64,000 nt of DNA from an uncultured delta proteobacterium. Its GTDB lineage: Bacteria > Desulfobacterota > Binatia > Binatales > Binataceae. How positions within the stretch are numbered: the first letter of the stretch is position 1; each line of letters opens with the position of its first letter. The stretch is from assembly GCA_963832395.1 (NCBI GenBank), contig CAWHTV010000002.1, forward strand, positions 556,343 through 620,342, read 5' to 3'. The notes beneath the pieces are model-generated. The model searched no databases. It was not told where the DNA came from and saw only the letters and a program-made list of their open reading frames with translations. Positions 15,297 to 43,780 of the stretch are shown one piece after another. Both the position numbers and the translations under genes were made by a program.

Positions 15297-15335
15297 CCAA
15301 ACAACGCGACGTCGATCAGTGAAAAGGAAATAGCG

Positions 15336-15687
15336 ATGGCCGAGCAAAAAAATCCCAATCGCGTGATCAGCATCTTTCGCTTTCGCATGAAGAATCTCAG
15401 CGCGGCCGAGCGCGATGAATACAACGCCACCGCCGGCCGTTTGCTGAAGATCGTCAACGCAATGCCCGGCTTCATCTCGTTCCGCGAATACAAGAATCAT
15501 GACGGCGAGTTGCTCGGCATCACCGAATGGGCTTCGGCCGAGGCGCTGGCCGCGTGGCGGGAAAATCCCGAGCATCGCAAGGCCCAGGAGCGCGGACAGC
15601 AGGCCTTTTACGCCGAGTACGAAATCTCCGTCTGCACGCCGCTGCACGCACTACAGCTTCAAGGACGGTCAGCGGTCGGCTCAATGA
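15336..15687 (+). CDS. Antibiotic-biosynthesis-monooxygenase (ABM) domain protein; 1 frame break near 15645
   Basis: It reads ISIFRFRMKN...MPGFISFREYKNHDGELLGITEWASAEALAAWRENPEHRKAQERG. The alternative frame ends ...YSFKDGQRSAQ* with a TGA that overlaps the next ATG (ATGA at 15684-15687). Confidence 0.6.
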
Positions 15688-17233
15688 CCGACGGCTCCGG
15701 GGTTGGCTCGAAGACCGGCGCTCCCGGCCGCGCGCCGCCGGACGAGCACGACGCGCGGCTTCTCGCCAACGTCCATCCCGAGAGCTGGGAAAATCCCGAA
15801 CCGGCGGCGCGCTACAACCTGGTGGTGATCGGCGCCGGGACGGCGGGCCTGGTCGCCGCGGCGGGCGCGGCGGGGCTGGGCGCGCGGGTCGCACTGGTCG
15901 AGCGCCGCTTGATGGGCGGCGATTGTCTGAACTTCGGATGCGTCCCGTCGAAGGCGCTGATTCGCGCCTCGCGCGTATGCGGCGCGATCAACCACGCGGC
16001 GAGCTACGGGATCGCGCCGAACGCACCGGCGCATGCGGAATTCGGCGCAGTGATGGAGCGGATGCGCCGGCTGCGCGCGGAATTGAGCGCTAACGACTCC
16101 GCCGCGCGCTTCAAGGGTCTCGGCGTCGACGTTTTTCTCGGCGCAGGCGCGATTCGTCGGACGCGATGCGGCCGAAGTTGAGGGCATGCGGCTCAACTTC
16201 AGCCGCGCGCTGGTCGCGACCGGCGCGCGTCCGGCCGCGCCGCCGATTCCGGGCCTCGCCGAAACCGGGTTTCTTACCAACGAAACGGTTTTCTCGCTGA
16301 CCGAGTTGCCGCGGCGGCTCGCGGTGATCGGCGCGGGGCCGATCGGATGCGAGCTGGCGCAGGCGTTCCGGCGCTTCGGCTCGGAGGTATGGCTGCTGGA
16401 GGCCTTGGCGCAGATCCTGCCGCGCGAGGACCGCGACGCAGCCGCGATCGTCGAGCGCGCGATCGTCGGCGATGGGGTCGAACTGCTCACCGGATGCAAG
16501 GTCGCAAGCGTCGGGATGGGCGCCGCGGGCCGTATCGTGCGCCTGGAGCATCGCGGCGCGCATCGTGAGATCGAAGTCGATGAAATCCTGGTGACCGCGG
16601 GGCGCGCGCCCAACGTCGAGGGACATCGGCCTCGAGGCCGCCGGCGTGGAGTACGACCGCAAAAGCGGCGTGCGGGTCGACGACTATCTGCAAACCAGCA
16701 ACTCGCACATCTTCGCCGCCGGCGACGTATGCTCAGCGCTTCAGTTCACGCATCTGAGCGACGCGCACGCCCGTATCGTGATTCGCAACGCGCTGTTCTT
16801 CGGACGCGACCGCGTAAGCCGCCTCACGATTCCCTGGTGCATCTACACCGACCCGGAAATCGCCCACGTCGGCCTCGGCGAAGCTGAAGCCGCCGCGCGC
16901 GGCGTCGCGATACGGACCTTCACGCAGACGATGAGCGCGGTGGACCGCGCGGTGCTGGACGGCGAGACCGCGGGAATCGCCAAAGTCCACGTGCGCGAAG
17001 GCGGCGACCAAATCGTTGGCGCAACGATCGTCGCGGCCCACGCCGGCGAAATCATCTCCGAATTGACGCTCGCGATCGCCGCCGGGATTGGACTGGGGCG
17101 GATCGCCGGCGTGATTCATCCCTATCCCACGCAGGCCGAGGCGATCAAAAAGATCGCCGACTCCTACAACCGCACGCGCCTGACCCCTTCGCGCAAGCGC
17201 CTGCTTACGCGGCTGCTCACCTGGCGCCGCTAG
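15685..17233 (+). CDS. FAD-dependent pyridine nucleotide-disulfide oxidoreductase (mercuric-reductase/dihydrolipoamide-dehydrogenase class); 2 frame breaks
   Basis: It carries YNLVVIGAGTAGL, the redox-active GGDCLNFGCVPSK, a second Rossmann motif (AVIGAGPIGCELAQ), IFAAGDV, and a dimerisation domain ending HPYPTQAEAI. Breaks lie near 16150 and 16625. Confidence 0.8.
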
Positions 17234-17339
17234 CGACGCGGGCGCCTTCCCTTGGGCCGCGCGCGCGATTTGCGCTATCCTCGCGTTCGCGCTAGGTCGC
17301 AGTAAAATGCGCGGAACTTCACGTCAAGGAGTTGGTCTT

Positions 17340-18277
17340 ATGCAGCTGCATCCCCAAATGAAGGCGATTCTCGACCAGGCGGCCGCCTCCGGCGCCAAGC
17401 CGTTCCATTTGAGACTCCAGCGCAAGCACGGCAGGGAATCGCAGCGTTGCTGGAGCCCTTCAACAGCGCTCCCGAGAAAGTGGCGAAGTCCGAGAAGCGT
17501 TCCATCCCCGGGCCGGGCGGCGAAATCCCGGTGCAGGTCTATACGCCCGAGGGTAACGCGCCGTTTCCGGTCCTGGTCTACTTTCACGGCGGCGGATGGA
17601 CGATCGGCACGATCGCTTCGTGGGATTCGTTCTGCCGCTCGCTGTGCAACGCCTCCGGATGCGTCACCGTGTCGGTCGATTACCGGCTCGCGCCGGAGCA
17701 CAAATTTCCCGCCGGTCCGGAAGACTGCTATGCCGCGACCGACTGGGTGGCGAAAAACGCCGCATCGATCGGCGGCGACCCGGCGCGCGTGGCGGTCGGT
17801 GGCGACAGCGCGGGCGGAAATCTCGCGGCGGTGGTCGCCCTGATGGCGCGCGATCGCGGCGGCCCAAAGGTCGCCTTCCAACTCCTGATTTATCCCGCCA
17901 CCGACGCGGGCCTCGACACGCCCTCGCAGCAGCAGTTCCAGGACGACGGCTACATCCTGTCCAAGAAGGACATGGTCTGGTTCTGGGGTCACTACCTCAA
18001 CGGCGACAAAGACAAAACCAACCCGTACGCGTGCCCGGCCGAGGCCAACAGCCTGCGCGGGTTGCCGCCGGCGCTGGTGGTGACGGCGGGCTTCGATCCG
18101 CTGCGCGACGAAGGCGAGACCTACGCGGCGCGGTTGCAAGAGGCGGGCGTAAAGACCGAGTGCATCCGCTACGAAGGCGTGACGCACGGCTTCGTGCTGA
18201 TGGCGGCGGTGCTGGACGAGGCGCGCAAGTCGATCGCGGACATGGGCGCGGCGCTCAAGGCCGCGCTCAAGAAGTAG
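17340..18277 (+). CDS. Alpha/beta-hydrolase esterase/lipase (HSL family), copy 1; 1 frame break near 17420
   Basis: The N-terminus is [23 protein letters not shown]. It has the oxyanion motif HGGGW, the nucleophile motif GDSAGG, DPLRDEG, and a C-terminal His in GVTHGF. Confidence 0.8.
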
Positions 18278-18296: not shown

Positions 18297-18344
18297 CTGT
18301 GGGGCGGGCGGCGGCGCGCTAGCGCGCCGCCGCCCGCCCCACAG
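18297..18344. terminator. 48-nt perfect palindrome (about 22-bp GC stem) between the two esterase genes
   Basis: The palindrome is CTGTGGGGCGGGCGGCGGCGCGCT|AGCGCGCCGCCGCCCGCCCCACAG, followed by cgcaTTTTgc. It starts 20 nt after the stop at 18277. Confidence 0.55.
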
Positions 18345-18412
18345 CGCATTTTGCGCCTGCGCTAGCTCGCGCCGTGCGCGGCGCGAGCGTCCGCATCGGG
18401 GAGGAACCGCGT

Positions 18413-19348
18413 ATGCCACTGGACCCGCAGATGAAGGTGATACTCGATAAAGCCGCGGCCGCCGGTGTGCCCTCGTTTCACCAGATGACCGCCGTGCAGG
18501 CGCGCGAGGTCCTGCGCAAGCGCCCGCCGATGGGCGCGCCGGAACCAATCGCGCACATCGATAACCGCGGCATCCCCGGCCCTGCCGGCGAGATTCCTAT
18601 TCGTATATACCGTCCACAGGCGGACGCGCCGCTGCCCGCGGTGGCTTTCTTCCATGGCGGCGGATGGGTGGTCGGCGATCTCGATACGCACGACGTCGTA
18701 TGTCGGATTCTGACTAATGCCGCGCGATGCGTGGTGGTATCGGTCGACTACCGCCTCGCGCCGGAGCATCGGTTTCCCGCAGGCCCCGATGATTGCTACG
18801 CGGCGACCGCATGGGTCGCAAACAACGCCGCGTCGATCGGAGCTGATTCCTCGCGCCTGGCCGTCGCCGGCACCAGCGCCGGCGGCACGCTGGCGACGGT
18901 GGTCGCGATGATGGCGCGCGACCGGCGTGGCCCGCGGCTCGCCTGCCAGGTGCTTTGGTATCCGGCAACCGACGCCGCGATGGATACGCCGTCGCATCGC
19001 GACTACTCTACCGGCGCCTACTACCTACTCTCGCGTGCCGACATGGAGTGGTTCTGGAATCACTATCTGTCGTCCGAGCGCGATCGCGCGAATCCCTACT
19101 GCTGCCCCGGTGTGGCCAAGGACTTAAGCGGACTGCCACCGGCGCTGGTCGTCACCGCCGAGTACGATCCGCTGCGCGACGAAGCCGAGGAATACGCCGC
19201 GAGCCTCAAACGCGCCGGCGTCGCGGTCAAATGCACACGCTACGAGGGCGTGACGCACGCGTTCACCGGGATGGCGCCGATTCTGGACAAGGGCCGCCAG
19301 TCGATTCTCGAGGCGGCCACCGCCCTGCGCGAGGCCTTCGGCGTCTGA
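18413..19348 (+). CDS. Alpha/beta-hydrolase esterase/lipase (HSL family), copy 2 (intact)
   Basis: The start is ATG 18413, preceded by GGGGAGGA. It is colinear with copy 1 (MPLDPQMKVILDKAAAAG..., HGGGW, GTSAGG, DPLRDEA, GVTHAF). Confidence 0.85.
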   Translation: MPLDPQMKVILDKAAAAGVPSFHQMTAVQAREVLRKRPPMGAPEPIAHIDNRGIPGPAGEIPIRIYRPQADAPLPAVAFFHGGGWVVGDLDTHDVVCRILTNAARCVVVSVDYRLAPEHRFPAGPDDCYAATAWVANNAASIGADSSRLAVAGTSAGGTLATVVAMMARDRRGPRLACQVLWYPATDAAMDTPSHRDYSTGAYYLLSRADMEWFWNHYLSSERDRANPYCCPGVAKDLSGLPPALVVTAEYDPLRDEAEEYAASLKRAGVAVKCTRYEGVTHAFTGMAPILDKGRQSILEAATALREAFGV

Positions 19349-19415: not shown

Positions 19416-20332
19416 GTGACTATGGCTGCGAAGGCACGACACGCCGAACAGACTCCTGGGGTCAAGCCGGGCACATATAGTGATGGGCATCCACTCGACA
19501 CCGTGCACTATCTCGAGTCCAAGCTGATTCTGAAACCGGACCGCTTTACCGGGCTTCCGTCTTTTCATGATTTTGGCAAGCTCGTGCGCCGCGCCGCCGA
19601 GCAACTGGATATCGATTTTTCGACCCGAGGCTCCAAGGGCGTGCGGCCTCGCATCCGGGAGGTAGTGTTTCTCGATACCAAGGACTTCAGCCTGTACAAC
19701 AATTCGTTCATCCTGCGCCGGCGAATCTCATATGAAGATGGTTTTCCGGTGGGTAACCCGGAGATCGTTTTCAAGTTCCGGCATCCCGACCTGCAGCTTG
19801 CGGCCGAGATGGATGTGCGTCCGAATATCCCGGCTGAATATCGGATCAAGTTCAAGGCCGAAGCATTGCCGCTCAAGGATAAGCTCGGCGGGGCTCGTCT
19901 GCTCTATTCGCACAACGTTCAATTCGAGCTGCAGCGCGAGATGCATAGCGCTTCGATGGCTGAGTTGGCGGAGTTTTTTCCGGCGCTCGGTAACCTCGGG
20001 AAGTCGACCAAGAAGGTCCTTTTGGTCAACCATACGATCGTCGAGGAGGTGCTGACAGGATATCGGCGTTCTCGATTTCGGCGAAGGGAGTCACCGCCCA
20101 GTCGAACGCCGCACTGTGGCGGGAGCGCGGTGATCACAAAATGCTCATTGGAGAGTTCGCCTTCGACTGCAAATTCAAACGCAGGGACGAGCTTCACGAC
20201 AAGGCGCTCGAACGCGTCAGACGGTTCTTCATCCTGCTTCAGAACATCGCGAGCCACTGGATCTCGCTGGGGACAACCAAGACCGGTATCGTTTATCGGC
20301 TAAAGGGCAATCCGCCTCAGAGCCACGAGTAA
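19416..20332 (+). CDS. Hypothetical protein, CYTH/triphosphate-tunnel-like; visibly lower G+C; about 2 frame breaks at 20060-20090
   Basis: It shows repeated beta-strand-like segments with alternating charged residues: YLESKLILK, VVFLDTKDFSLYNNSFILRRR, EIVFKFRHP, YRIKFKAEA, LIGEFAFDCKFKRR. The C-terminal ORF 20141-20332 joins through a short third-frame segment (IGVLDFGE). Confidence 0.4.
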
Positions 20333-20398: not shown

Positions 20399-20815
20399 TC
20401 AGGATTTTTTCTGGACGCCGCCGCCGAGGCCAGATTCCCGAAGATCGGAAACCGGGCGATACTGGGTGCTCGGCTCGAGCCGCGGATTGCGCGACGGATC
20501 GAGCGGCGGGAGGCGCCCGTCGCGTTTCGCGGCGGCCTCGACGAGCGCGGTATCGGGCCGCCACGGTTCGGCGTCGCTGTTGCGAACGGCGGTGCCGCGA
20601 AAGTCGTAACGCATCCAGTAGACCGTGCGCATCGCGGCGCCCGCGGGGTCGCGACGCAGATGCGTGTAGATCCATTTCTCGTTGAAGCGCACGCCGTCTT
20701 CCTCGCGCTCGCGCGGATCGTCGAGGCTGCCCTCGGTACGGTCGGGCGTGCCGAGGATGGCGACGATCGCGTTGCGGGCCGGACGATCGTTCAATTCGCT
20801 CATACTTCCGCTCAT
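20399..20815 (-). CDS. Hypothetical 138-aa protein, translationally coupled to nuoEF
   Basis: It is the C-terminal part of ORF 20399-21901 (MSGSMSELNDRPARNAIVAILGTPDRTEGSLDDPREREEDGVRFNEKWIYTHLRRD...). Its ATG at 20815-20813 overlaps the nuoEF TGA at 20814-20812. I recognise no family. Confidence 0.5.
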   Translation of the reverse strand: MSGSMSELNDRPARNAIVAILGTPDRTEGSLDDPREREEDGVRFNEKWIYTHLRRDPAGAAMRTVYWMRYDFRGTAVRNSDAEPWRPDTALVEAAAKRDGRLPPLDPSRNPRLEPSTQYRPVSDLRESGLGGGVQKKS

Positions 20816-22602
20816 ACCTCGAAGCTCTCCGGGAAGGGGCATCGATGCTCCGCGATGTGGGCCTCGAAGTCGGCGCGGAACTGCTTGAGGAACGCGCGCG
20901 CGGCCCACGACGCGCCGTCGGCGAGCGCGCAGATGCATTTGCCGTCCATGAAATCGAAAGTGTCGGCCAGGGTCTGGAGGTCCTGCGGCTCGCCCTCGCC
21001 GCTTTCGATCCGGCGGAGCGTCTTGTAGGTCCATCCGGTGCCCTCGCGGCACTGGGTGCATTGGCCGCACGATTCGTGCTCGAAAAAACGCGCCACCACC
21101 AGCGCCGTGCGCACCATGCAGGTGCGATCGTCCATCACGATCGCGCCGCCGGTGCCGATCAGCGTGCCGGCCGCGCGCAGCGATTCGTGATCCATCGCGA
21201 CGTCGATCTGATCGCCGCGCAACACCGGCATCGAGACGCCGCCCGGAATCACCGCCTTGATCGGCCGCCCGCTGGGCACGCCGCCGGCGTACTGATAGAT
21301 GAGGTCGCGCAGCTTCACGCCGAGCCTGAGCTCGAAAATCCCGGGATTGTTGACGTGGCCGCTTACGCCGAACAGCGTGTGGCCGGCGGCGTTCTTGACC
21401 CCTTCGTCGAGGAACCATTGCGCGCCGCGCATCACGATCGCCGGCACGTGCGAGAGCGTTTCGACGTTGTCGACCGTGGTCGGCTGGCCCCACAATCCGG
21501 CCTGCGCGGGAAAGGGCGGGCGCTTGCGCGGCTGCCCCTTGCGCCCTTCCATCGATTCCAGCATCCCGCTTTCTTCGCCGCAGATATACGCGCCCGCGCC
21601 TTGCTGGATGGTGATGTCGAAGCGGCGGTTGAAGCCGAGCGCGTTGTCGCCGAGAATTTTGGCTTCGTAGAGCGAGCGGATCGCCGCGCTCATCGCCGCG
21701 AATTCCTCGACGTATTCGCCGCGGATATAGATGAAGGCCGCGGTGGACTCCATCGCCATCGCCGCGATCATGATTCCCTCCAGCGGCAGGAACGGATTGC
21801 GCGACATGATCTGGCGATCCTTGAAGGTGCCGGGCTCGCTCTCGTCGGCGTTGACCGCGAGGTAGCGCGGGCGCGCGTCGCGCGGCGGCATGAACGTCCA
21901 CTTAAGGCCGGTGACGAAGCCGGCGCCGCCGCGGCCGCGCAGGTTGGAATCCTTCACCAGCGTGGCGAGGTCTTTGGGCGCCATCGCACCCGCCTTGGGC
22001 GCCGCCTCGAACCCGCCGTGCTCGCGGTATTCCTCGAGCGTCAGCCGTTTTTCATCGCCGCGCGGCAGCAGGTAGCCGTCGACGCCGTCGGGAACGCGCG
22101 AGATGACCGGCGCGGGGCGAGACGCCGCGCGCGCCGCTTCGGGCGATTCAAGCAGGCTCGCGGCGAACTCCGGCGTTACGTTTTCCAGGTACGGATTGCG
22201 GTTGACCTGCACCACCGGCGCGGTCGCGCATGAGCCTAGACATTCGACTTCCGCGATCGCGAAGCGGCCGTCGGGCGTCGCGGTGCCCGATTTGATCCCG
22301 AGCCGGCGTTCGAGCTCGCGCACCACGCCGCGCGCGCCGCGCAGGCAGCATGGCAGGTTGGTGCAGACCTGGATGACCGCCTGTGCGCGAGGCAGGTTGA
22401 AGAGCGAATAGAACGAGGCGACCTCGGCGACTTCGCTGGCGCGCATCCCGAACAGCGGCGCCAGCTCGGCGAAGGCTTCGGGGCCGAGCGCGCCCAGGTC
22501 GTCGCGGGCCAGATAGATCGCCGCCAGCAGCGCGCCGCGCGGGTTGGGAAAGCGCGCCTGCTCGGCGCGGATCTTTTCCTGCGTTTCAGCCGACAAGCCC
22601 AT
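20812..22602 (-). CDS. nuoEF: Fused NADH dehydrogenase subunits NuoE (24 kDa, 2Fe-2S) and NuoF (51 kDa, FMN/NADH, 4Fe-4S)
   Basis: The ORF is intact at 596 aa. The NuoE part reads VCTNLPCC...ECLGSCATAP. The NuoF part reads NLRGRGGAGF, NADESEPGTFKDR, YICGEESGMLESMEG and ESCGQCTQCREG...GKCICALADGA. Confidence 0.9.
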   Translation of the reverse strand: MGLSAETQEKIRAEQARFPNPRGALLAAIYLARDDLGALGPEAFAELAPLFGMRASEVAEVASFYSLFNLPRAQAVIQVCTNLPCCLRGARGVVRELERRLGIKSGTATPDGRFAIAEVECLGSCATAPVVQVNRNPYLENVTPEFAASLLESPEAARAASRPAPVISRVPDGVDGYLLPRGDEKRLTLEEYREHGGFEAAPKAGAMAPKDLATLVKDSNLRGRGGAGFVTGLKWTFMPPRDARPRYLAVNADESEPGTFKDRQIMSRNPFLPLEGIMIAAMAMESTAAFIYIRGEYVEEFAAMSAAIRSLYEAKILGDNALGFNRRFDITIQQGAGAYICGEESGMLESMEGRKGQPRKRPPFPAQAGLWGQPTTVDNVETLSHVPAIVMRGAQWFLDEGVKNAAGHTLFGVSGHVNNPGIFELRLGVKLRDLIYQYAGGVPSGRPIKAVIPGGVSMPVLRGDQIDVAMDHESLRAAGTLIGTGGAIVMDDRTCMVRTALVVARFFEHESCGQCTQCREGTGWTYKTLRRIESGEGEPQDLQTLADTFDFMDGKCICALADGASWAARAFLKQFRADFEAHIAEHRCPFPESFEV

Positions 22603-22640
22603 CGTGTTTCACGCTCGCGCCGTCGCGCCGGCCGCGTGCT

Positions 22641-23888
22641 CTAGCGGTCGCATTCGCCGCCGATCATGTTGATCAAGTCGAAAGTCGGCACCACGTCGGC
22701 CAGCATTCCGCCGGTGATCATCTTCTCCAGCGCCGACATGTTGGAAAAGCTCGGCGCGCGGCATCGGCATTTGTACGGCTTGCCGGTGCCGTCGCTCACG
22801 ATATAGAAACCGAGTTCGCCGTTGGCGCCCTCGACCGCGTGGTAGACCTCGCCCGGCGGCACCAGTCCGCCCTCGGTGACCAGCTTGAACTGGTCGATCA
22901 GTTCTTCCATGCGGCCGAACACCTTGCCCTTGCGCGGCCAGCGCACGCGCGGGTCGTCGGAGTTTACGGGTCCGGCGGGAATTTTCTCGAAGCACTGCGC
23001 GATCATGCGGCGGCTCTGGCGCAACTCCTCCAGGCGCACCAGGTAGCGATCGAAGTTGTCGCTATGCTCGCCGACCGGAACGTCGAAGTCCAACTCTCCG
23101 TATACGAGATACGGCTGCACGCGGCGCACGTCGTAGGGCACGCCGCCGGCGCGCAGGAGCGGACCGGTCACGCCATGCGCGATCAGCGTTTCGGGCGCCA
23201 GATGGCCGGTGCCCTCGACGCGGTCGCGAAAAACCGGATTTTGCGTGAGCAGCTTGTCGGCGTCGTCGAGCAGGCTGAGCGAACGGTCCAGCCGCTCGAC
23301 GGCGAAGCGATCGAAGCCCTCGGGAAGATCGGCCGAGACGCCGCCGATGCGGATGTAGTTGGTGGTGACGCGCGCGCCGCAAAGCGCGTCGAGCAGATCG
23401 CACATCAACTCGCGCGCCTCGAGCAGGTAGAGAAACGGCGTCATCGCCGCCAGCTCGAGCGCCATCGCACCGAGGCACAGGTAATGATCGCTCATGCGCG
23501 AGATTTCGCCCGCGATCACCCGGATGAAGTCGCAGCGCGGCGGCGTGCGCAGGTCCATCAGCTTCTCGACCGCGAGGCAGTAGCCGACGTTGTTGAGCAT
23601 CGGCGAGCTGTAGTTCAGCCGGTCGGTGTACGGGATGTTCTGGTAGTAGTAGCCGGTCTCGCACTCCTTCTCGAAGCCGCGATGGAGATAGCCGACCTGG
23701 ACGTCGGCCTTGACCACGCGCTCGCCGTCGAGGTCGAGCACCATCTTGACCGTGCCGTGGGTCGCCGGATGCGACGGGCCCATCTGCATCCGCATCAGCG
23801 GCGTCTGCAGATCGCGCGCCGGATCGGCGGGCGGCGCGTCAGTGGGGGCGGCGGGGTTCTTTGGCTCCAGGTCCGGCATAGGGTTCAA
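22641..23888 (-). CDS. nuoD: NADH dehydrogenase subunit D (49 kDa)
   Basis: The ORF is intact at 415 aa. It carries MGPSHPATHGTVKMVLDLDGE, HRGFEK, PYTDRLNY and a C-terminal IGGECDR. Confidence 0.9.
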   Translation of the reverse strand: MNPMPDLEPKNPAAPTDAPPADPARDLQTPLMRMQMGPSHPATHGTVKMVLDLDGERVVKADVQVGYLHRGFEKECETGYYYQNIPYTDRLNYSSPMLNNVGYCLAVEKLMDLRTPPRCDFIRVIAGEISRMSDHYLCLGAMALELAAMTPFLYLLEARELMCDLLDALCGARVTTNYIRIGGVSADLPEGFDRFAVERLDRSLSLLDDADKLLTQNPVFRDRVEGTGHLAPETLIAHGVTGPLLRAGGVPYDVRRVQPYLVYGELDFDVPVGEHSDNFDRYLVRLEELRQSRRMIAQCFEKIPAGPVNSDDPRVRWPRKGKVFGRMEELIDQFKLVTEGGLVPPGEVYHAVEGANGELGFYIVSDGTGKPYKCRCRAPSFSNMSALEKMITGGMLADVVPTFDLINMIGGECDR

Positions 23889-24492
23889 TCGGTTGTTCGT
23901 CGTGTTTGGCGTAGTCCTTGCGCAGCGGATGGCCGACGAATTCGTCGTAGAGATAGATGCGGCGAAGGTCCGGATGGCCGTCGAAGCGGATGCCGTAGAG
24001 GTCGAAAGTTTCGCGTTCGAGCCAGTTGGCGCCGGGCCATAGCGCGCTCAGGCTCGCGATCGCCGGATCGTCCTCGGGCACGCGGCACTTCACGCGCAGG
24101 CGATGGAGCAGGCGGGTGGAGACCAAATGATAGACCACGGCGAAGCGCGGAGCGTCGCCGCGCGCGGGCAGGTTCACGCGATGGCGCCACTCGGCGCGCT
24201 TGCGCACCAGGTTGTGATTGCGATCCCAGGTCTCGGGCGCGTTCTGGAAGCCGTCGGGCTGGCCGAAATAGTCGACGCAGGTCACGTCGAGCAGCAGGTC
24301 GAAGCCAAGCTCGGGCGAGTCGCGCAGCGTGCGCGCCGCTTCGAGAATATTCTCGCGCGCGACGTGGATGCAGTCGTCGCCGCGAAAGCTCTGATGCTCG
24401 GCGATCAGCGGACCGAGCCGCGCGATCACCTTTTGCAGCAGCGCGGAAAGCTCGGGCGGTGCGGGCGTTTTTGGTTCCTCGGCGGCGCTCAT
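23839..24492 (-). CDS. nuoC: NADH dehydrogenase subunit C (30 kDa)
   Basis: The ORF is intact at 217 aa (LLLDVTCVDY...FAVVYHLVS...ANWLERETFDLYGIRFDGHPDLRRI). It overlaps the annotated nuoD start by 50 nt. Confidence 0.85.
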   Translation of the reverse strand: MSAAEEPKTPAPPELSALLQKVIARLGPLIAEHQSFRGDDCIHVARENILEAARTLRDSPELGFDLLLDVTCVDYFGQPDGFQNAPETWDRNHNLVRKRAEWRHRVNLPARGDAPRFAVVYHLVSTRLLHRLRVKCRVPEDDPAIASLSALWPGANWLERETFDLYGIRFDGHPDLRRIYLYDEFVGHPLRKDYAKHDEQPIEPYAGPGAKEPRRPH

Positions 24493-24498
24493 CGGTCC

Positions 24499-25047
24499 TT
24501 ATTCGTAGTGGCCGCGCAGAAAATCGGTTCGGGTCTTGAGGCGATCCTGCGGCACCAGCAGATCGGTCTTGTGCCAGAGCGAGCCGCGGCGCGAGTAGCT
24601 CGCGATCTCGACCTCGCGGCTCATCACGATCGCCTCCTCGGGGCAGGCCTCCTCGCACAGCCCGCAGAACATGCAGCGCGACATGTCGATGTCGAAAATC
24701 TCGGGATAGCGCTCGACCTCGTCGGCGGTCTCGGCGGGAAAAATCGTGATGCAGGTGGTGGGGCAGGCCCATTCGCACAGCCCGCACGCGACGCATCGCT
24801 CCTTGCCGTTCTCCATCTGCACCAGCACCGGCATCCCGCGCATCGCCGGCGGCTGCACGAAGCGCTGCTCGGGAAAATAGACCGTGAAGTCCTGGCGCCC
24901 GCGCATGAAGCCAAACAGGTTGCGCAGCAGATGCGCCGTGGCGACCCACAGCCCCACCAGCACCGCCCACAACGCGTGCGGCCCGACCAGGCTTGGCGCC
25001 GGCCGCACCACCTTTACTACTCGAATCGCCATCCGGCGTCGCTTCAC
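24499..25047 (-). CDS. nuoI: NADH dehydrogenase subunit I (2x 4Fe-4S ferredoxin)
   Basis: It carries CVACGLCEWACP and CMFCGLCEEACP. The start is GTG 25047 or ATG 25032. Confidence 0.85.
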   Translation of the reverse strand: MKRRRMAIRVVKVVRPAPSLVGPHALWAVLVGLWVATAHLLRNLFGFMRGRQDFTVYFPEQRFVQPPAMRGMPVLVQMENGKERCVACGLCEWACPTTCITIFPAETADEVERYPEIFDIDMSRCMFCGLCEEACPEEAIVMSREVEIASYSRRGSLWHKTDLLVPQDRLKTRTDFLRGHYE

Positions 25048-25054
25048 CTGTCCG

Positions 25055-25110
25055 CGAGTACCAGTTTTGCAGTATCAGCTTCGCAGTATCAATCTTGCGG
25101 TATCAGTTTA
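25055..25110 (-). repeat. Four tandem copies of a 14-nt unit filling the MFS-nuoI spacer
   Basis: The minus strand reads taaaCTGATACCGC aagaTTGATACTGC gaagCTGATACTGC aaaaCTGGTACTCG. The first copy starts at the MFS stop codon. The array is AT-rich in a GC-rich genome. Confidence 0.8.
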
Positions 25111-26508
25111 GGCCGGCGACGGCCGCACCGTTGGCGCCGCGGCCTCGCCCGAGCTTTGCCCGGCCTTGACCGGCACCCATCCGCCGCGCACCGCGAGCAT
25201 TGCGGGAATAAGCGTCGCCATGCCCGCCACGGCCACCCACATCCATGCGGCCCATCCGTAGTGGCTCGAAACATAAGCGACCAGCGGACCCGAGATCGCT
25301 ATCCAGCCGCGATAGATCAACTGGAAGAACGACCATCCGCTCGCCTGCAACGCCGGCGAGATATCCTCGAGCAGTTCCGAATATTGCGCGCACCACGGGA
25401 TGAAGGCGAAGGCGACCAGACCGCCGAGCAGGAACATCACCGCGCTTAGCTGGAACGGCGGCAACGGATTGGAAAACGTTCCAATCCACCAGATCAGCAC
25501 CGCAAGACTGGCGACGGTGCCGATCAACACCAGCGGCTTGCGCACCCGCAGCTTGTCCGAGAGCAATCCGGCCGGCACCAGCATGAACAGATTGAGCAGC
25601 CAGAAGTACGACGCTATCTTGTCCGCCTCGGCCGGAGAGTAGTGGAACGCCCGCGTGAACATCACCGGGAAAAACGTCTGGCTGGTGATCGGCAGAGTCA
25701 GGAAGGCCACGCATCCGACCACCAGCACCCACACCTCCCAGCGGCTGAGCAACTCCTTGAAGGCCGCGCCGCCGCTGGCCGGAACTTCCATCGCCGTCTC
25801 GCGCAGGTGTTCGGCGGGCGCGGCGGCCACCGTGGTTTCGCTCTCGACGATGGTCAGGCGCAGGTTCGGATGAAGATCTTTAAGCCACAGCAGCACCGGG
25901 ATGTACATCAGGATCGACAGCAGATCCCCATTATCCAAATCTGCGATTGCCAGGTGCCGAAGATGGGCAGCGTCTCACCGCTGATGAAGTTCCACAGGAA
26001 AATGCACCCGACCGCGCCGACCGTGAGCAGGCCGAAGGCCGCGCCGCGGCTCACGCGCGGCGACATATCGCGGGTGAGGCCGCCGAGCGCGCCCCACATC
26101 AGCCCCGCCGTCAGATTCATCGCGCCGCGGATGATCACGAACGACCAGAACCCGGTCATCAGCAGATTGGCAAAGGTCAATACGATGATGACCGCGAGAC
26201 AAACGTCGATGACGATGATGCGGCCGTGGCGATCGGCGAGCGGCCCGCCGATCATCGCCGACCCGCCGGAGAGCAGCACCGCGAACAGCAGAAACAGGGT
26301 GAAGTTTTCCAGGCTGAAGTGCAGCGTCGGAATCCACAGCGGCAGCAGCGGCGCGAATTGGAATTCGTAGAAGGAGACGATCGTGGCGAGCACGGTGAGC
26401 ATCAGCATCGCCCAGCGATGCGCGCCGACCGGGATAGGTCTCGAGCGTGCGATGGGTCGCGAGGTAGCCCTTGAGGCCACCCGGTTCCGAAACCGCTGCG
26501 GTCGCCAT
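25108..26508 (-). CDS. MFS-type permease embedded in the nuo cluster; 2 frame breaks (about 26440 and 25930)
   Basis: The start is ATG 26508 (MATAAVSEPGG...). The hydrophobic segments join across ORFs 25908-26714 and 25108-25938. MFS loop motifs are GGPLADRHGRIIV in the first half and GLLSDKLRVRKP in the second half. Confidence 0.7.
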
Positions 26509-26599
26509 AGATTTTTGTCCCCCTGCGGCTTTCCGCCGGCGCGCGAGGCCGGTTCGCAAACCACAGAGTGCGTCAATTGATCGCCCGACGGCAAGCGAT

Positions 26600-28258
26600 T
26601 CAGCGGTCGCCCGCGCGTTGCGCGCCCGCCTCGTCGAGCATCGTGCCGCTGGCTCCCAGGGCCTCCAGCGAAATCCCGGCGAAGCGCGGATGCGCGCGCC
26701 GTATCGGTTCCCACATCGCTTCCGGATCGAAGCGGCGCTCACCGCCGATCGATCGCGTTGAGCAGACGGGTGAAGACCTCGCCATCGCTAAGCCATCCCG
26801 GCGGCGTCTCGATCGCCTTGAAGATGCGCTGCACGCGCCCGGCGTGATTGGTGAACGAGCCGTCCTTCTCGGCGAATGTCGTGGTGGGAAATACCACGGT
26901 CGCGCGGCCCAGGCGCGGATCGAGCCTCAGCGTCTGCACGATCAGCAGTTCGAGCCGTCCCAGGATTGCCTCGAGACGTTCGGGCGCGAGCGCGTCAAGC
27001 AGGTCGACGGATCGTCGCCGCAAAGATAGAGTCCCTTGAGCTCGCCCGCTTCCACGGCCCGCAGCAGCTCGCCGAGCCCGTCGTCGTCGCCGCTCACCAG
27101 TCCCAGCTCGCGCACGCCGCGCGCGTTAGGCGCCTTCTCGGCCTTGATCAGGAAGTCGTCGGCCGTTCCGCGCCGCACCGCCATCGCGGCCTTGCCCGCG
27201 CCGGCCGCGCGCATCAGCTCGCCGAAGCGAAAGTTTTCCTCGTTGGTGAGATGGGGCGAGATGACCGCGCCGAGCGCGCCGTCGCCGTGGCGCGCCTTGA
27301 GCGCGGCGATCGCCGCGGACGCGCGCGCCAGCGCCTCTTGCCACGGCGCCTGGACGAGCGCGCCGTTCTCCGCGACCATCGGCGCGCGCAGGCGCTCGGG
27401 CGCGTCGACGAACTTGTAATCCAGGCGCCCGTGGTCGCACATCCAGGTGTCGTTGACCGCGTCGTTGCGGCGCGGAATCAGCCGCCAGATGCGATTGCGA
27501 TACTCCGAGACCATGATGTTGCAGCCGTTGGAGCATCCGGGGCAAACGCTGGCGGTCTCCTGGAGAAACCACACGCGGATGCGATGATGGAAGTCCTTGC
27601 TTTCGAGCGCGCCCACCGGGCAGATGTCGGCGGTGCAGATGGAGTAGTCATTGTCGAGGCGGCGGTCATAGACGTCGAGCACCGAGCGGTCGCCCAGGTT
27701 GAAAACCGCGAGCTCGCCGGTCTTGCTGATTTCACGGCAAAAGCGCACGCAGCGCCGGCACAGGATGCATCGTTCCTGGTCGAGCAGCATGCGCTCGCCG
27801 ATGTCGACGCGCTTCTGATGCTTGCGCCGCGGCTCGAGCGTGCGCGCATGGCGGCTGCCAAAGCGCATCGCGTAGTTCTGCAGCCAGCACTCTCCGGCCT
27901 TGTCGCAGATCGGGCAATCCAGCGGATGGTTGAGCAGGAGCATCTCGAGCACGCCGCGGCGCGCCAGCGCGACCTCCGGATCCTCCGTATGCACGATCAT
28001 CCCGTCGCGCACCTGCGTGTTGCACGAGATCTGCAGCTTCGGCATCCCCTCGATCTTCACCTGGCAGAGCCGGCAACTGCCGTCGATGCTGAGCTTGGGA
28101 TGGTAGCAGTAGTGCGGGATGTCGAGCCCCGCGTCGAGCATCGCCTGCAACAGCGGCGTGCCCTCGGGCGCCTCGATCGCGCGGCCGTCGACCGTGAGCT
28201 TCGCGGTCTTGGGAGCGTTGGTCTTCGATGCGTTAGTCGAGCTTGCGTCCGCTGCCAT
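26600..28258 (-). CDS. nuoG: NADH dehydrogenase subunit G (75 kDa-type, short form); 2 frame breaks (about 27010 and 26770)
   Basis: It carries 2Fe-2S CYHPKLSIDGSCRLCQV, HPLDCPICDKAGEC, CILCRRCVRFC and ICPVGAL. The C-terminal part continues in ORFs 26739-27023 and 26600-26785. Confidence 0.8.
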
Positions 28259-28811
28259 GGAGACTGGCCCACAGTTGTGGCTGACGTTCGTTCTGGACGC
28301 GGTACTGCAGCTTGATCAGCCCGTCGAGCACGGCCTCGGGACGCGGCGGACATCCGGGAATATAGATGTCGACCGGGATGATGCGGTCGATGCCCTGGAG
28401 CACGGCGTAGTTGTCGTAGGGACCACCCGAACTGGTGCAGGCGCCGAACGACACCACCCACTTCGGCTCCGCCATCTGCTCCCACACGCGGCGCAGGATG
28501 GGCGCCTGGCGCTGGGTGATGGTGCCGACCACGAACAGCAGGTCGGCCTGGCGCGGAGTGAAGCGCGGCAGCGCGGCGCCGAAGCGGTCGATATCGTAGC
28601 GGGGGCCGGCCACCGAGAAATATTCCATCCCGCAGCACGCGGTGACGAACGGGTAGCTGAAAAAGGAATACTTGCGCGCCCACTGCACGGCGTCATGCAA
28701 TCGCGTGAGCGCGAAGCTTTCGGGGAAGGCCGCGCTCTCGTCGTTGAGCGAATGGCGCGCGAGTCCGCCGCGCACCAGGAAGGCCGAAAATCTGCGTTGA
28801 CGCTGAGCCAT
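28233..28811 (-). CDS. nuoB: NADH dehydrogenase subunit B (20 kDa, cluster N2)
   Basis: The ORF is intact at 192 aa (FVTACCGMEY...VVSFGACTSSGGPY...IYIPGCPPRPEA). It overlaps the nuoG start by 26 nt. Confidence 0.9.
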   Translation of the reverse strand: MAQRQRRFSAFLVRGGLARHSLNDESAAFPESFALTRLHDAVQWARKYSFFSYPFVTACCGMEYFSVAGPRYDIDRFGAALPRFTPRQADLLFVVGTITQRQAPILRRVWEQMAEPKWVVSFGACTSSGGPYDNYAVLQGIDRIIPVDIYIPGCPPRPEAVLDGLIKLQYRVQNERQPQLWASLHGSGRKLD

Positions 28812-28821
28812 ATTGAAGGTC

Positions 28822-28869
28822 CCGCAAAACCTATCGCGAACTTGCCGTAAATCCGCCGCAAACTTGCCG
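28822..28869. promoter_or_regulatory. Direct repeats in the divergent nuoB/amidohydrolase control region
   Basis: CGCGAACTTGCCG (28835-28847) and CGCAAACTTGCCG (28857-28869) match at 12 of 13 positions and are spaced 22 bp apart. A partial third copy, CCGCAAAAC, lies at 28822-28830. Confidence 0.3.
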
Positions 28870-29063
28870 CGAAGCTTTACGCGTGGAGTCCCGCGTCGCC
28901 GCGCCTGTATCGCGTTCGGCGCGCTGCCGGCTACGTTCGATTCATCTTTCGCGAAATGGCCTTCGAGGGCAAGGCCACCGGATTTGCAATCGCGGCGCTA
29001 TCGGTGGTTAGAAGAGACGAGACGCCCTGGCGGCGGCGAAATCCGGAGGGAGGGGAAACCACG

Positions 29064-30176
29064 ATGGCGAAAATCATCGACTCCGACGCACACGTCGTCG
29101 AGCCGCGCGCGCTGTGGGAGGAATACGTCGAGCCCGCCTTCCGCGATCGCATCCCGAAAGTCGTCAAGGATGCGGACGGGGTCGATCGCTTCGCGGTGGG
29201 CCAGGCCGCGCGCGCCGGCATCTACGCTCCCGCCGCGATGTGCATCCCGGGCGGGCTCAGCCGTCCCGAACTGGCGCGCGAGCTTTCGTGGGACGACCTG
29301 AGACCCGGCAGTTACGACCCCCACGCACGCATCAAGGACATGGATTCGGAGGGAATCGACATGTCCTTTCTTTTTCCCTCGCTCGCGCTCGCCTACGTCG
29401 CGATCCGCGAGGCCGACCTCGCGGCTGCCGCGTGTCGCGCCTACAACAACTGGATGGCGGACTTTTGCGGCGCTTATCCCGAGCGGCTCTACAGTATCGC
29501 GCCGGTTCCGCTGTTCGAGGTCGAGGCCGCAATCGCGGAGATGCGAAGGGTGGTCAAGGAGCATGGCGTGCGCGCGGTGCTGGTGCGGCCTAATCCGTAC
29601 GGCGGCCGTCTGTTGAGCGACCCTGCTTACGATCCTTTCTGGTGCGAGGCGCAGCAACTCGACTGCACCATCGCCGTGCACGGCGCGGTAGGCGGCGACA
29701 TGCCAACGGCTGGGTTCGATCGTTACCGCGATTTTTTCCAGCGCATGATCATCTCGCATCCGCTCGAGCTGCAGATGGCCTGCATGACCTTGATCTGCGG
29801 CGGCGTGCTGGAGAAATATCCGCGCCTGCGTATCGCATTCCTGGAAGCGGGCGGGCTCTGGGTTCCTTACTGGCTGGCGCGGCTGGACGAGTTCCACGGC
29901 AAGATCGGCCACATGGCGCCCAGGATCAAGCTGAAGCCGAGCGAATATTTTCGCCGCCAGTGCTTCTGCTCGTGCGAGCCCGACGACGTGGCGCTCAAGA
30001 CGGTCGCCGCGCTCGACGCCGGCGATTTCCTGATGTGGGCGTCAGACTATCCGCACTATGACTGCGAATTCCCCGGCGCGGTGCGGGAACTGCGCGAGCA
30101 CTGCGCGGCGCTGAGCCCCGAGACGCAAAGAAAAATCATGGGAGATAACGCGGCCCGCTGCTACGGGCTTGCCTGA
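29064..30176 (+). CDS. Amidohydrolase-2 family (ACMSD-like metal-dependent hydrolase/decarboxylase)
   Basis: The start is ATG 29064 after GGAGGGAGGGG. The sequence reads MAKIIDSDAHVVEP...RAVLVRPNP...IAVHG...FLEAGGLWVPYW...WASDYPHYD. Confidence 0.8.
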   Translation: MAKIIDSDAHVVEPRALWEEYVEPAFRDRIPKVVKDADGVDRFAVGQAARAGIYAPAAMCIPGGLSRPELARELSWDDLRPGSYDPHARIKDMDSEGIDMSFLFPSLALAYVAIREADLAAAACRAYNNWMADFCGAYPERLYSIAPVPLFEVEAAIAEMRRVVKEHGVRAVLVRPNPYGGRLLSDPAYDPFWCEAQQLDCTIAVHGAVGGDMPTAGFDRYRDFFQRMIISHPLELQMACMTLICGGVLEKYPRLRIAFLEAGGLWVPYWLARLDEFHGKIGHMAPRIKLKPSEYFRRQCFCSCEPDDVALKTVAALDAGDFLMWASDYPHYDCEFPGAVRELREHCAALSPETQRKIMGDNAARCYGLA

Positions 30177-39920: not shown

Positions 39921-39980
39921 AAGCGATCTTTTTAGCGATCCTGCAAGAGATTTTGTTCGCGATTTTGTAAGAAGAACTAG
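39921..39980. repeat. Degenerate 12-nt tandem repeat (4-5 copies) in a convergent intergenic spacer
   Basis: The copies are aagcgatctttt / tagcgatcctgc / aagagattttgt / tcgcgattttgt / aagaagaactag. The array lies between the kinase stop (39900) and the metH stop (39977). Confidence 0.5.
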
Positions 39981-42900
39981 CGGGACGCGATCGCGCGCGG
40001 CGGGGGAACCGGCGCGGGGCTCTGCTCGCGCTCGAGCGCCTCGATATCGGCGGCGGAGAGGCTGAAGTAACGCGCTTCCGGATGATGAAAAACCATCGCG
40101 CTCACCGCGCTCTCGGGATCCATCATGTAGCCCTCGGTCAGTTTCAGACCAATCGAATGCTTCTCGACCTCGAGCAGGCGGAACAGCTTCTGCTGGTCCT
40201 CCAGGCGCGGACAGGCCGGGTATCCGAATGAAAACCGCTTGCCGTGATAGTGTGCCTGGTGCAGCTCCTTCATCGTGATCCCCGCCGGATCGCCGAACCC
40301 CCACATCTGGCGGATCTTCTGATGCAGCAGCTCGGCGAAGGCCTCGGCCCCCTCCAGCGCCAGTATTTGCAGGATATGCGAACGCAAGTACTCGCCGCGG
40401 TCCTTCCATTCCTCGGCCAGCGCGCGAACGCCTTCGCCGATCGTGGTCACGAACATGCACAGGTAATCGGTTCTGCCGGATGAGCGCGACGCGACATAAT
40501 CGGCAAGGCACAGTCCGGGCTCGTCGCTCTGGCGGCCGAAGATCAGACTCTCGAGCACCGTCTTGCCGTCGGAAGAATAGATCATCACGGTGCGGTCGCC
40601 GTCGGAGCGGGCGGGAAAGAAGCGGTAAACCGCGTTGGCCCTGATATCGGTGCGCCCCAACATCACCTCTTCGACCGCCGCAACCGCCGCGCTCAATTCC
40701 GTGGCACGTGGGTCACGGCCGGCCAGGGCCGACTCGTAGTTGCGCAGCCCCAGGTGGCGCGTATAGAGCATCACCGGATTGATGTAGCGGAAGACCTCGC
40801 CCAGGTCGTAGCCGCGCACGACGTGCGGCTTCAAGTCCGGCGGCAGCGGGAATTTCGACGTCCTGACGCACGGTGGACGCGCGCCGGCCGGCGAGCGGCG
40901 CGGGCGCCGCCGGCTTCACCGCGCTCGCGCGCATCCTTTGCGTCTCGGCCTCCAGCCTCCGGCAGAGCGCGGCGCGCCGCTCCTCGTCCATCAACTGGTT
41001 GGCGAGGTCCAGCCCTTCCATCGCGTCGTTGGCGTAAGCGACCGGTCCGTCGTACTCGGGCGCGATCTTCATCCGGGTGAAGCGCGCCGAGAGCGCCGCG
41101 CCGCCGACCAGGATCGGGCATCCGATGCCCGCGCTCTTCAAGTCCTGCGCCGTCGCCACCATCATCTGCGCCGACTTCACCAGCAGGCCGGAGAGCCCGA
41201 TCGCGTCGGGCCGATGCTCGTTGTAGGCCTTGATCAACTCTTCGGGCGGCACCTTGATGCCGAGGTTGACGACCCGGTAGCCGTTGTTGCTCAGGATGAT
41301 GTCGACCAGGTTCTTGCCGATGTCGTGGACGTCGCCCTTCACCGTCGCGAGCACGATGGTGCCGCGGCTCGCGCTGTCGGCCTTCTCCATGTGCGGTTCG
41401 AGATGGGCGACCGCGGCCTTCATCGCCTCGGCCGATTGCAGCACCTCGGCCACGATCATCTGGTTGGAATTGAACAGCCGCCCGACTTCGTCCATCCCCT
41501 TCATCAACGGGCCGTTGATGATCTCCAGCGCCGAGCGCGCGCCGAGCGCCTCGTCGAGGTCCTCGATGAGCCCTTCCTTGGAACCCTCCAGGATGTAGAG
41601 TCCGAGCCGCTCATCCAGCGGCAACGAACGCCGTTGCTCGACGTTGGGCTTGGCCTTGCGCGAGCGGAAGTAGCCGGCGAAGGCCGCAATCGGATCGTCG
41701 CCGCGCCACCAGATCAGGTCCTCGGCCAGGCGGCGTTCCTCTTCGGGCACCGAGTGGTAGCGCTCGAGCTTCTCGGAGTTGACGATCGCGAGGTCCAGCC
41801 CGGCCTGCACGCAGTGATAGAGCATCACCGAGTTCAGCACCTCGCGCCCCGCCTCGGGCAGGCCGAAGGAGACGTTGGAGATGCCGAGCACGGTCTTGCA
41901 GCGCGGCAACGCGGCCTTGATGAGCGCGATGCCCTCGATAGTCTCGACGGCGGAGCCGATATAGTTGCGGTCGCCGGTGCCGACCGGAAAGACCAGCGGA
42001 TCGAAGATGATGTCCTCGGGCTCGACGCCGTAGCTTTCGGTCAGAATCTTGAACGAGCGCTCGGCGATCGCGAGCTTGCGCGCGCGCGTGATCGCCTGCG
42101 CCTGCTGCTTGTCCTCGTCGATACAGCCGACCACCAGCGCCGCGCCGTAGCTGCGCGCGAGCGGCACCACGCGCTGGAAACGTTCCTCGCCGTCCTCGAG
42201 GTTGATCGAGTTGATGATCGACTTGCCCGGCGCGCGCTTGAGCGCCTCTTCGAGCGCGACCGCGTCGGTCGAATCGATCATCAGCGGAACTTTTACCTTC
42301 TTGACCTCGATTTCGAGGAACCCGGTCAGGTCGGCGATCTCGTTGCGATCGGGATCCTGCAAGCAGACGTCGAGCACGTGGGCGCCGCGGCGCACCTGCA
42401 GGCGGCCAATCTCGGCCGCCTCCTCCAGCTTGCCCTCGGCGATCAGCCGCTTGAACTTGCGGCTCCCGAGCACGTTGGTGCGCTCGCCGACGATCACCGG
42501 GCGCGTGTTGTCGTCGATCACCAGCGCCTCGATTCCCGACACCACCGAACGGCGCAGGCTCGAAGGCTTGCGCGGCCGCTTGCCCTCGGCCATCCGCGCC
42601 AGCATCCGGATGTGCTCGGGCGTGGTCCCGCAGCATCCGCCGATCAGGTTGACCCATCCGGCGTCGACGAAGCGCTCGAGCTTGCGCGCCAGCGATTCGG
42701 CCGATTCGTTGTAATGGCCCTCCTCGTCGGGCAGGCCCGCGTTCGGCACGCAGGCGACGTCGAAGCGGCAGATCTCCGCGAGCGTGCGCAGATGGTCGGT
42801 CATGAAGTCGGGGCCGGTCGCGCAGTTAAGGCCCATCCAGATGAGCCCGCGATTGGCGAGCGAGGTGTAAAAGGCCTCGATATCCTGCCCCGCCAGCAGC

Positions 42901-43517: not shown

Positions 43518-43780
43518 GCTCAACAGAAGAGGCCCTGCGGCCTCGGCATTCAGCTTATCCGACTGACACGTGACGGGCAATTTCGACCGACGCGATAGAC
43601 GAATGTTTTGTATTTACGCTGTAACTGCTGTAACGGATCGCTGAGCTGCCGCAATTCGTCGCACGGGAGTAAACCGGCAGGGCGTGGCGCGGGGGGAACT
43701 TTGACGCGCCGGACCGGTTCACTAATGCTGGACGCGGCCGTGAGCGACGCGCAGCGCCGCCCAGCCAAGGAGAAACGACG

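Follow-up and report, generated by a model that had tools for sequence, protein, structure and literature searches.

How should one read a gene cluster that carries every hydrophilic subunit of respiratory complex I, none of its membrane subunits, and a permease gene in its midst? The question is raised by positions 20,399 to 28,869 of a 64,000-nucleotide (64-kb) stretch of contig CAWHTV010000002.1, from an uncultured bacterium of the Binataceae (Binatia); this whole stretch is what we call the window. On the minus strand the order is nuoB, nuoG, a major facilitator superfamily (MFS) permease gene, nuoI, nuoC, nuoD, a fused nuoE-nuoF and an open reading frame (ORF) of 138 amino acids (aa), which we call gene X. 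A first-pass annotation of the window had offered two explanations, an unusual split with the membrane arm encoded elsewhere, or a distinct NADH:acceptor module for which the permease might be the membrane partner. Our analysis makes it likely that the cluster encodes the canonical complex I peripheral arm of Candidatus Binataceae, with the membrane arm elsewhere, the MFS gene a passenger, X an accessory gene, and the frameshifts that we describe below errors of assembly.

The peripheral arm and the place of the membrane arm

Genes were identified by Pfam and NCBIfam scans of the ORF translations, and motifs were read directly in the translations. Together with the ORF listing, these scans bear out the gene list and order of the first-pass annotation, and they return Pfam matches for all seven hydrophilic subunits, NuoB, C, D, E, F, G and I; every cofactor motif that it had listed is found as well. 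The product of nuoB (28233..28811, 192 aa), the carrier of iron-sulphur (Fe-S) cluster N2, matches Oxidored_q6 (E 2e-26), NF005012 (207 bits against a cut-off of 116) and TIGR01957 (200 against 142.7), and its CCGME, GAC and GCPP motifs provide the four N2 cysteines. The gene nuoG (26600..28258), of a short type whose intact orthologue has 552 aa, is represented in the window by pieces of which those of 438 and 94 aa match Fer2_4, NADH-G_4Fe-4S_3, Fer4_Nqo3, Molybdop_Fe4S4 and Molybdopterin, and its translation has cysteine patterns of the N1b, N5, N4 and N7 types. NuoI (24499..25032, 177 aa from the ATG), which carries two 4Fe-4S clusters, matches Pfam Fer4 families and has CxxCxxCxxxCP twice; NuoC (23839..24492, 217 aa) matches Complex1_30kDa (E 1e-42) and scores 131.5 with TIGR01961 (cut-off 122.45). 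The quinone-site subunit NuoD (22641..23888, 412-415 aa) matches Complex1_49kDa (E 1e-100). The fused NuoEF (20812..22602, 596 aa), with the NADH and flavin mononucleotide (FMN) site and clusters N1a and N3, scores 476 with NF010120 (cut-off 389) and matches 2Fe-2S_thioredx, Complex1_51K, SLBB and NADH_4Fe-4S; its NuoE part has Cx4C...Cx3C and its NuoF part GAGAYICGEES and CGQCTQC. Translations and Pfam matches taken together, the NADH/FMN-site and Fe-S motifs of NuoE, NuoF, NuoG and NuoI are all in place. Curated cut-offs are passed by NuoB, NuoC, NuoD and NuoF. NuoI, at 112.4 bits with TIGR01971, falls about 0.6 bit below its cut-off of 113.05, and NuoG scores 406 bits against 470 because it is the short form.

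Could these genes belong instead to a group 4 [NiFe] hydrogenase or Mbh-type module? We reject this on the NuoD scores and on the absence of the NiFe cysteine pairs from both GPSHPATHG, near the N-terminus, and GGECDR, near the C-terminus. NuoD scores 474 with NF004739 (cut-off 360) and 466 with TIGR01962 (cut-off 459), and it matches NDUFS2 (E 3e-113) and Nqo4 of Thermus thermophilus (E 2e-103) over its full length, as against E values of 2e-35 for the membrane-bound hydrogenase (MBH), 5e-33 for formate hydrogenlyase (FHL) and 3e-58 for Mbs. Moreover, His44 and Tyr93 of NuoD align with His59 and Tyr108 of NDUFS2 (chain 5xtd_Q), so that the quinone site is conserved. From published structures we take these two residues to be the ligands of the quinone headgroup in mammals, with His38 and Tyr87 in the same role in T. 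thermophilus.

Is this arrangement peculiar to one contig? We scanned one genome per GTDB species, which yielded 36 Binatia loci, added five metagenome loci, and mapped the genes with tblastn; loci are cited below by our own labels where they need to be told apart. The theme common to these loci is nuoB, nuoG, in some of them the MFS gene, nuoI, nuoC, nuoD, nuoEF and gene X, with no membrane gene. The 596-aa nuoE-nuoF fusion is found in all Binatia loci, and in L082 nuoC and nuoD are fused as well. The best NuoD homologues, at 69-97% identity, come from soil metagenomes and metagenome-assembled genomes (MAGs), and are assigned to Candidatus Binataceae or Binatales wherever the source names them; an exact-sequence look-up of the window NuoD and of P0099 matched no record. 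The sampled assemblies are independent of one another, being both short-read and long-read, with megahit, SPAdes and long-read contig names (k141_, NODE_, contig_). This bears on the possibility, of which the first-pass annotation had warned, that the MFS gene owes its position to a chimeric join at its borders. The window assembly is noisy, but identical junctions recur in at least 28 assemblies, produced independently by different assemblers and from different types of read; we reject mis-assembly here and regard the chance of a chimera as negligible. On these comparisons the membrane-less order B-G-I-C-D-EF-X is thus the ordinary inherited layout of the lineage.

Part of this order extends further. 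The closest NuoD sequences outside the Binatia, at 58-60% identity, are those of two Myxococcota MAGs (L035 and L036), where nuoI, nuoC and nuoD (L035 8971-11414, L036 8985-11465) are followed by a short gene X homologue that is 47-52% identical over residues ~14-82. The rearranged block is therefore common to two phyla. In these Myxococcota nuoB lies 5-8 kb upstream of the nuoI-C-D block, and the interval in L036 holds no membrane subunit, only lipB and lipA.

Where, then, are the membrane subunits? The first-pass annotation had claimed that NuoA, H, J, K, L, M and N are all missing from the cluster, and this holds for the whole window: none appears in a Pfam scan of the 30 large ORFs of the window, and tblastn with these subunits from four canonical operons gave no match anywhere in the 64 kb. 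The same kind of search within 10 kb on either side of the 36 Binatia loci found no membrane subunit there either. A published survey of the Binatota describes complex I as encoded by all genomes (PMC8262859), and the legend of Fig. 5 in its preprint form states, for 108 Binatota genomes, that 'All subunits of complexes I ... were encoded in all genomes' (bioRxiv 10.1101/2020.09.14.296780). Most bacterial clades, moreover, mix split and single-cluster complex I gene sets (PMC12361115). That the membrane arm lies elsewhere is thus favoured by the Binatota survey, as one of the two original explanations had it; that the split is unusual does not hold, since it is standard across the Binatia and split sets occur in most clades. 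For NuoA, H, J, K, L, M and N we infer a separate locus elsewhere in the genome. The quinone site is conserved, and a quinone channel is therefore implied; to our knowledge this channel is built with NuoH in all known complex I.

In the scheme that we propose, NADH would be oxidised at FMN in the fused NuoEF, and electrons would pass along the Fe-S chain of NuoE, NuoF, NuoG, NuoI and NuoB to cluster N2, where quinone bound at the interface of NuoB and NuoD would be reduced. NuoA, H, J, K, L, M and N, which supply the quinone channel and the proton pumps, would come from another genomic locus. The order B-G-I-C-D-EF-X would have been inherited in the Binatia, with its I-C-D-X block common to some Myxococcota. 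The MFS gene, encoding a solute transporter, would have entered between nuoG and nuoI in a single event, in the common ancestor of one subclade of the Binataceae, and have stayed there since. A clean split of the complex I genes at the boundary between the arms would then be the stable inherited state of a whole uncultured lineage of phylum level. Such a split fits the modular view of complex I, in which the N and Q modules are set against the P modules. It also fits a result for E. coli which, as related in PMC12361115, is that assembly of complex I does not need the gene order (Oppermann et al. 2022). For annotation there is a caution in this: an 'incomplete complex I' on a Binatota contig would be an artefact of layout rather than biology.

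The permease gene between nuoG and nuoI

The permease gene (25108..26508; orthologue 465 aa) encodes a protein that belongs to the MFS, with Pfam MFS_1 covering both six-helix halves (profile positions 4-159 and 161-345 of 347) on two pieces in the window. It falls into none of the named subfamilies, whether anion:cation symporter (ACS), OPA, NarK or aromatic acid:H+, the best NCBIfam score being 40.4 bits against a cut-off of 395; its weak matches are to D-galactonate, NarK and aromatic-acid families. The family to which it belongs is narrow, with 234 matches at E <= 1e-10, and all of its named members are Binataceae.

The gene lies between nuoG and nuoI in at least 28 loci. It is absent from L028, L029, L031-L034 and L082-L084, where nuoG and nuoI abut or stand a few bases apart. 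In a neighbour-joining tree of NuoD all loci with the MFS gene form one clade; its sister is L028, which lacks the gene, and the remaining loci without it branch deeper. This points to one insertion. A copy that is 59% identical still sits within a nuo cluster (L085). The first-pass annotation had coupled the possibility that the split is the ordinary state of the lineage with a lack of conservation of the MFS gene, and here the two part company: the split is ordinary, but the gene is kept within a large subclade. Homologues also occur away from complex I. At L086 (7001-9885) two tandem 458-aa MFS genes, one of them 51% identical to the nuo-embedded gene, stand beside genes for an acyl-CoA dehydrogenase, a short-chain dehydrogenase/reductase (SDR) and FIST, with no nuo context. 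A locus of this type may be the source from which the nuo-embedded gene was copied.

Might the peripheral arm dock on the MFS protein instead of on NuoH and so form a new NADH:acceptor complex? The MFS protein is the only membrane protein of the cluster, and the first-pass annotation had singled it out as a candidate docking partner. However, the same cluster occurs without it in the nine loci just listed, the NuoD tree makes it a single late insertion, and the 51%-identical homologue lives outside nuo clusters altogether. NuoD and NuoB, moreover, are canonical, the former keeping the His and Tyr of the quinone site and the latter the cysteines of N2, and all complex I subunits are reported for Binatota genomes (10.1101/2020.09.14.296780). 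The spacers that flank the gene are also promoter-like, as described next. The docking claim is thus without support, and we hold such a complex to be highly improbable.

The spacer between nuoG and the MFS gene (26509..26599) measures 91 nucleotides (nt), from the stop at 26600 to the ATG at 26508, as against about 90 in the first-pass annotation; the spacer between the MFS gene and nuoI measures 75 nt, from the stop at 25108 to the nuoI ATG at 25032, and not the 60 or so given there. An alignment of nine loci shows that the former keeps a -35-like element, TTGACG/TTGACA, and it also holds an AGGGGGA ribosome-binding site. In one subclade (L015, L016, L018, L020, L021 and L068) the latter holds the conserved element TTTAC(G/C)-N16-TAGACT, read as GGGTTTAC(G/C)...TAGACT, which lies about 45 nt upstream of the nuoI ATG and ends 7 nt before it. 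This element looks like a sigma-70-type promoter for a leaderless nuoI-C-D-EF-X transcript. In the window's own subclade the same spacer holds instead a 14-nt tandem repeat, CTGATACTGCAAAG on the coding strand, of variable copy number. In the window the repeat occupies 25057..25105, where Tandem Repeats Finder (TRF) gives a period of 14 and 2.5-2.8 copies, and it is found also in L001, L003, L005, L007, L009, L011 and L012, where some 2 to some 10 copies can be made out by eye. Possible readings are an array of binding sites for a regulator, a hot spot of slippage, or noise in the assembly. The MFS gene, then, probably has a promoter of its own, with a second promoter restarting transcription of nuoI-C-D-EF-X. 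On the motifs and comparisons given here, the MFS gene is best read as a passenger, a transporter gene with its own expression signals and not a gene for a subunit.

A milder possibility is that in the clade that has it the permease works as a companion of complex I without being part of the structure, importing a substrate that feeds NADH or a cofactor precursor. Its place between nuoG and nuoI has been kept, and the gene intact, in at least 28 loci and over deep divergence; no terminator-like site lies in either of its flanking spacers; and the related copy, with acyl-CoA dehydrogenase and SDR genes for neighbours, gives a hint that the substrate is an organic acid. However, sister lineages have the same cluster without the gene, no specific transporter family is matched, and a search of the spacers against Rfam for a riboswitch or other known RNA, which would mark a ligand and so give a clue to the substrate, found no match at E <= 1. 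An insertion in an essential operon can, moreover, persist merely because imprecise loss would be harmful. We consider a companion role unlikely and prefer to regard the gene as a passenger.

Frame breaks and the case against the reading

The first-pass annotation had described nuoG and the MFS gene as if they were whole. Neither ORF is intact in the window, each being broken by two frameshifts. Read along nuoG, a 438-aa ORF runs to a stop at 26942, a 94-aa piece in another frame carries the end of the Molybdopterin domain, and a third piece, back in the first frame, ends at the TGA at 26600; by alignment with L001, L002 and L003, the first change of frame is a -1 indel near 27005 and the second a +1 indel near 26748. 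In the MFS gene a +1 indel lies near 26433 and a +2 indel near 25922-25926, as judged by alignment with three close relatives. The orthologue of nuoG in L002 (5641-7299) is intact at 552 aa, and the 465-aa MFS gene is intact in L001, L002 and others.

Are these breaks confined to the cluster? With eight relatives as guides we find eight frame breaks that four or more relatives support; they are spread over some 21 kb of the window and at least five genes, at 13.5, 16.1, 16.6, 25.9, 26.4, 26.7, 27.0 and 32.7 kb. Four of them, at 13533, 16140, 16611 and 32686, lie outside the cluster, and the rate is about one per 2.7 kb in the comparable 21 kb. Contig L001, which is 97% identical, has breaks of its own in nuoB, nuoG and nuoC, different from those of the window. 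The indels are not restricted to homopolymers. Basecalling error at the Dam motif (GATC) was considered as their cause and rejected: four of the eight breaks lie near GATC, against 36% of random windows, which is no enrichment. Elsewhere in the window MetH is split into two overlapping ORFs (39977-43613) and a Pyr_redox gene lies in pieces (15297-17233).

Consensus error in a noisy assembly is the most likely source of all four frameshifts, two in nuoG and two in the MFS gene, because close relatives have intact frames, because the breaks are scattered over unrelated genes and because those of L001 are different ones. The opposite view is that both are true pseudogenes in this genome and that the cluster is decaying. 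Four frame-breaking indels within two adjacent genes, and indels that are not confined to homopolymers, are what one might expect of decay. However, equivalent breaks occur in unrelated genes at 13.5, 16.1, 16.6 and 32.7 kb, with MetH split too, the breaks of L001 are private to it, and the remaining subunits, like the relatives, are intact and highly conserved; decay therefore seems to us quite improbable. Gene calls from this assembly are to be expected to be fragmented; more generally, where noisy long-read MAGs show nuoG or the MFS gene cut short, this would be an artefact of assembly, not biology.

What can be said against the reading as a whole? Its weakest link is the step that places the membrane arm elsewhere, which draws on the legend of a preprint figure and on the conserved quinone site. 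The cluster might instead be a second, auxiliary peripheral set in a genome that has a complete canonical nuoA-N operon at another place. Multiple copies of complex I do occur in other soil bacteria as a matter of general knowledge, but in our scan there was one locus of this type per Binatia genome, and 120 of the 120 best NuoD homologues were of this type, neither the scan nor the search being designed for divergent paralogues; we think an auxiliary set unlikely. The part given to promoters is read entirely from consensus-like motifs, and an automatic scan of the cluster in the window came back without a sigma-70-like site. The MFS gene has been retained while NuoD diverged to about 73% identity, and the MFS protein to about 59%, with intact copies in at least 25 genomes; some physiological tie between it and complex I is possible but unsupported. 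The frameshifts, finally, could be real mutations in one strain. These points all count against the reading that we prefer, and it is with them in mind that we call the canonical peripheral arm with a passenger permease likely.

Gene X and comparison with known systems

The 138-aa ORF at the end of the cluster (20399..20815) had been called an orphan, which it is not: it belongs to a conserved family. A word-indexed search found 115 homologues, all annotated as hypothetical and, where named, from Binataceae, and an exhaustive search with a hidden Markov model found 83 representatives among 1.84 billion cluster representatives. Many of the representatives have 80-110 aa and cover only core residues ~3-90. 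The family alignment has 12 invariant columns, among them an LGTP motif, NE-W and several Trp and Arg. An AlphaFold2 (AF2) model of this small soluble protein (predicted local distance difference test score, pLDDT, 83) places a six-stranded sheet between two helices and ends in a disordered tail, with no transmembrane helix. Searched with Foldseek against the PDB the model gave no match (best E 1.1), the family profile matched no PDB sequence, and the window copy matched nothing in Pfam and NCBIfam.

Two candidate identities were tried and dropped. Three of 46 members have a weak Pfam match to ESSS/NDUFB11 (PF10183; best E 2e-4), the window copy having none; comparison with human NDUFB11 by hhalign gives a probability of 0.6%, the profile finds no NDUFB11 chain, and the AF2 model lacks a transmembrane helix, and we reject the link with NDUFB11. 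Fusions of X to transmembrane regions (P0357, P0358 and P0404) were likewise set aside, the extra regions being unrelated to each other and to any locus and probably the product of merged gene calls.

What, then, could X do? It is present in every Binatia cluster, and in two phyla it follows the last gene of the peripheral-arm block. In the window its ATG overlaps the TGA of nuoEF (ATGA), and in L083 the two genes overlap by 4 nt by their coordinates; X thus appears to be translationally coupled to nuoEF. Judged by this linkage, its product most probably serves the peripheral arm as an accessory subunit or an assembly factor peculiar to the lineage. One may go further and suppose that X is a new bacterial complex I accessory subunit or assembly factor, found in the Binatia and some Myxococcota and with a fold absent from the PDB, and that in the Binataceae that have it the MFS protein is tied to the enzyme too, at the extreme as a second membrane contact. 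The strict linkage and translational coupling of X and the long-term retention of the MFS gene are compatible with this wider view, which we find conceivable but doubtful, and its version with the MFS protein as a structural dock is very unlikely. As a practical lead gene X is nevertheless attractive, being small, confidently folded in prediction, narrowly distributed and, in two phyla, tied to nuo genes; a culturable myxobacterium with the gene, should one be found, would open its role to experiment.

Outside the cluster, the divergent amidohydrolase that had been placed upstream of nuoB is indeed there, as an Amidohydro_2 gene (28956-30176). On the other side, immediately downstream of the cluster, the plus strand carries a tandem pair of Abhydrolase_3 (esterase/lipase) paralogues (17306-18277 and 18323-19348), and most Binataceae loci likewise have one or more such esterases after gene X. 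Between this pair and gene X the window has a convergent 295-aa ORF (19416-20303, plus strand), the C-terminal part of which looks out of frame. In several relatives (e.g. L002 and L005) the esterase comes directly after gene X, and the segment of about 1 kb with this ORF is thus variable.

How does the cluster compare with what is known? With canonical complex I, as in E. coli nuoA-N, the Nqo1-9 arm of T. thermophilus and mitochondrial NDUFS2, NDUFS7 and NDUFV1, it shares the same seven hydrophilic core subunits and the FMN, Fe-S and quinone-site motifs. It differs in its order, B-G-(MFS)-I-C-D-EF-X where the canonical one is A-B-C-D-E-F-G-H-I-J-K-L-M-N, and in its NuoE-NuoF fusion, its short NuoG, its unlinked membrane genes and the extra gene X. 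Other split sets, namely the cyanobacterial ndh operons, clades surveyed in PMC12361115 and the Myxococcota loci L035 and L036, likewise have the core genes spread over several loci. Unlike them, the Binataceae set is split exactly at the arm boundary, with seven of seven hydrophilic subunits together and none of the seven membrane subunits, a layout that is not described in the complex I survey (PMC12361115) or in the Binatota survey.

Group 4 [NiFe] hydrogenases, Mbh and Mbs and formate hydrogenlyase have homologous subunits of the B, C, D and I types; the Binataceae cluster, in contrast, has a NuoEFG module for NADH and a NuoD that is far closer to that of complex I. Among MFS transporters (anion:cation symporter, OPA and NarK-like), the embedded protein is like the others in that both MFS_1 halves are covered, and unlike them in scoring far under every subfamily cut-off. 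Lineage-specific accessory subunits, finally, are a familiar feature of complex I, examples being Nqo15 and Nqo16 in T. thermophilus and the homologues of NDUFS4, NDUFS6 and NDUFA12 in Paracoccus. Gene X shows no sequence or fold similarity to any of these five, but like them it encodes a small, soluble and lineage-restricted protein together with core genes. Thus the cluster represents a known system in a form specific to its lineage, with a rearranged order, an E-F fusion, a short NuoG, an inserted transporter gene and a conserved small protein.

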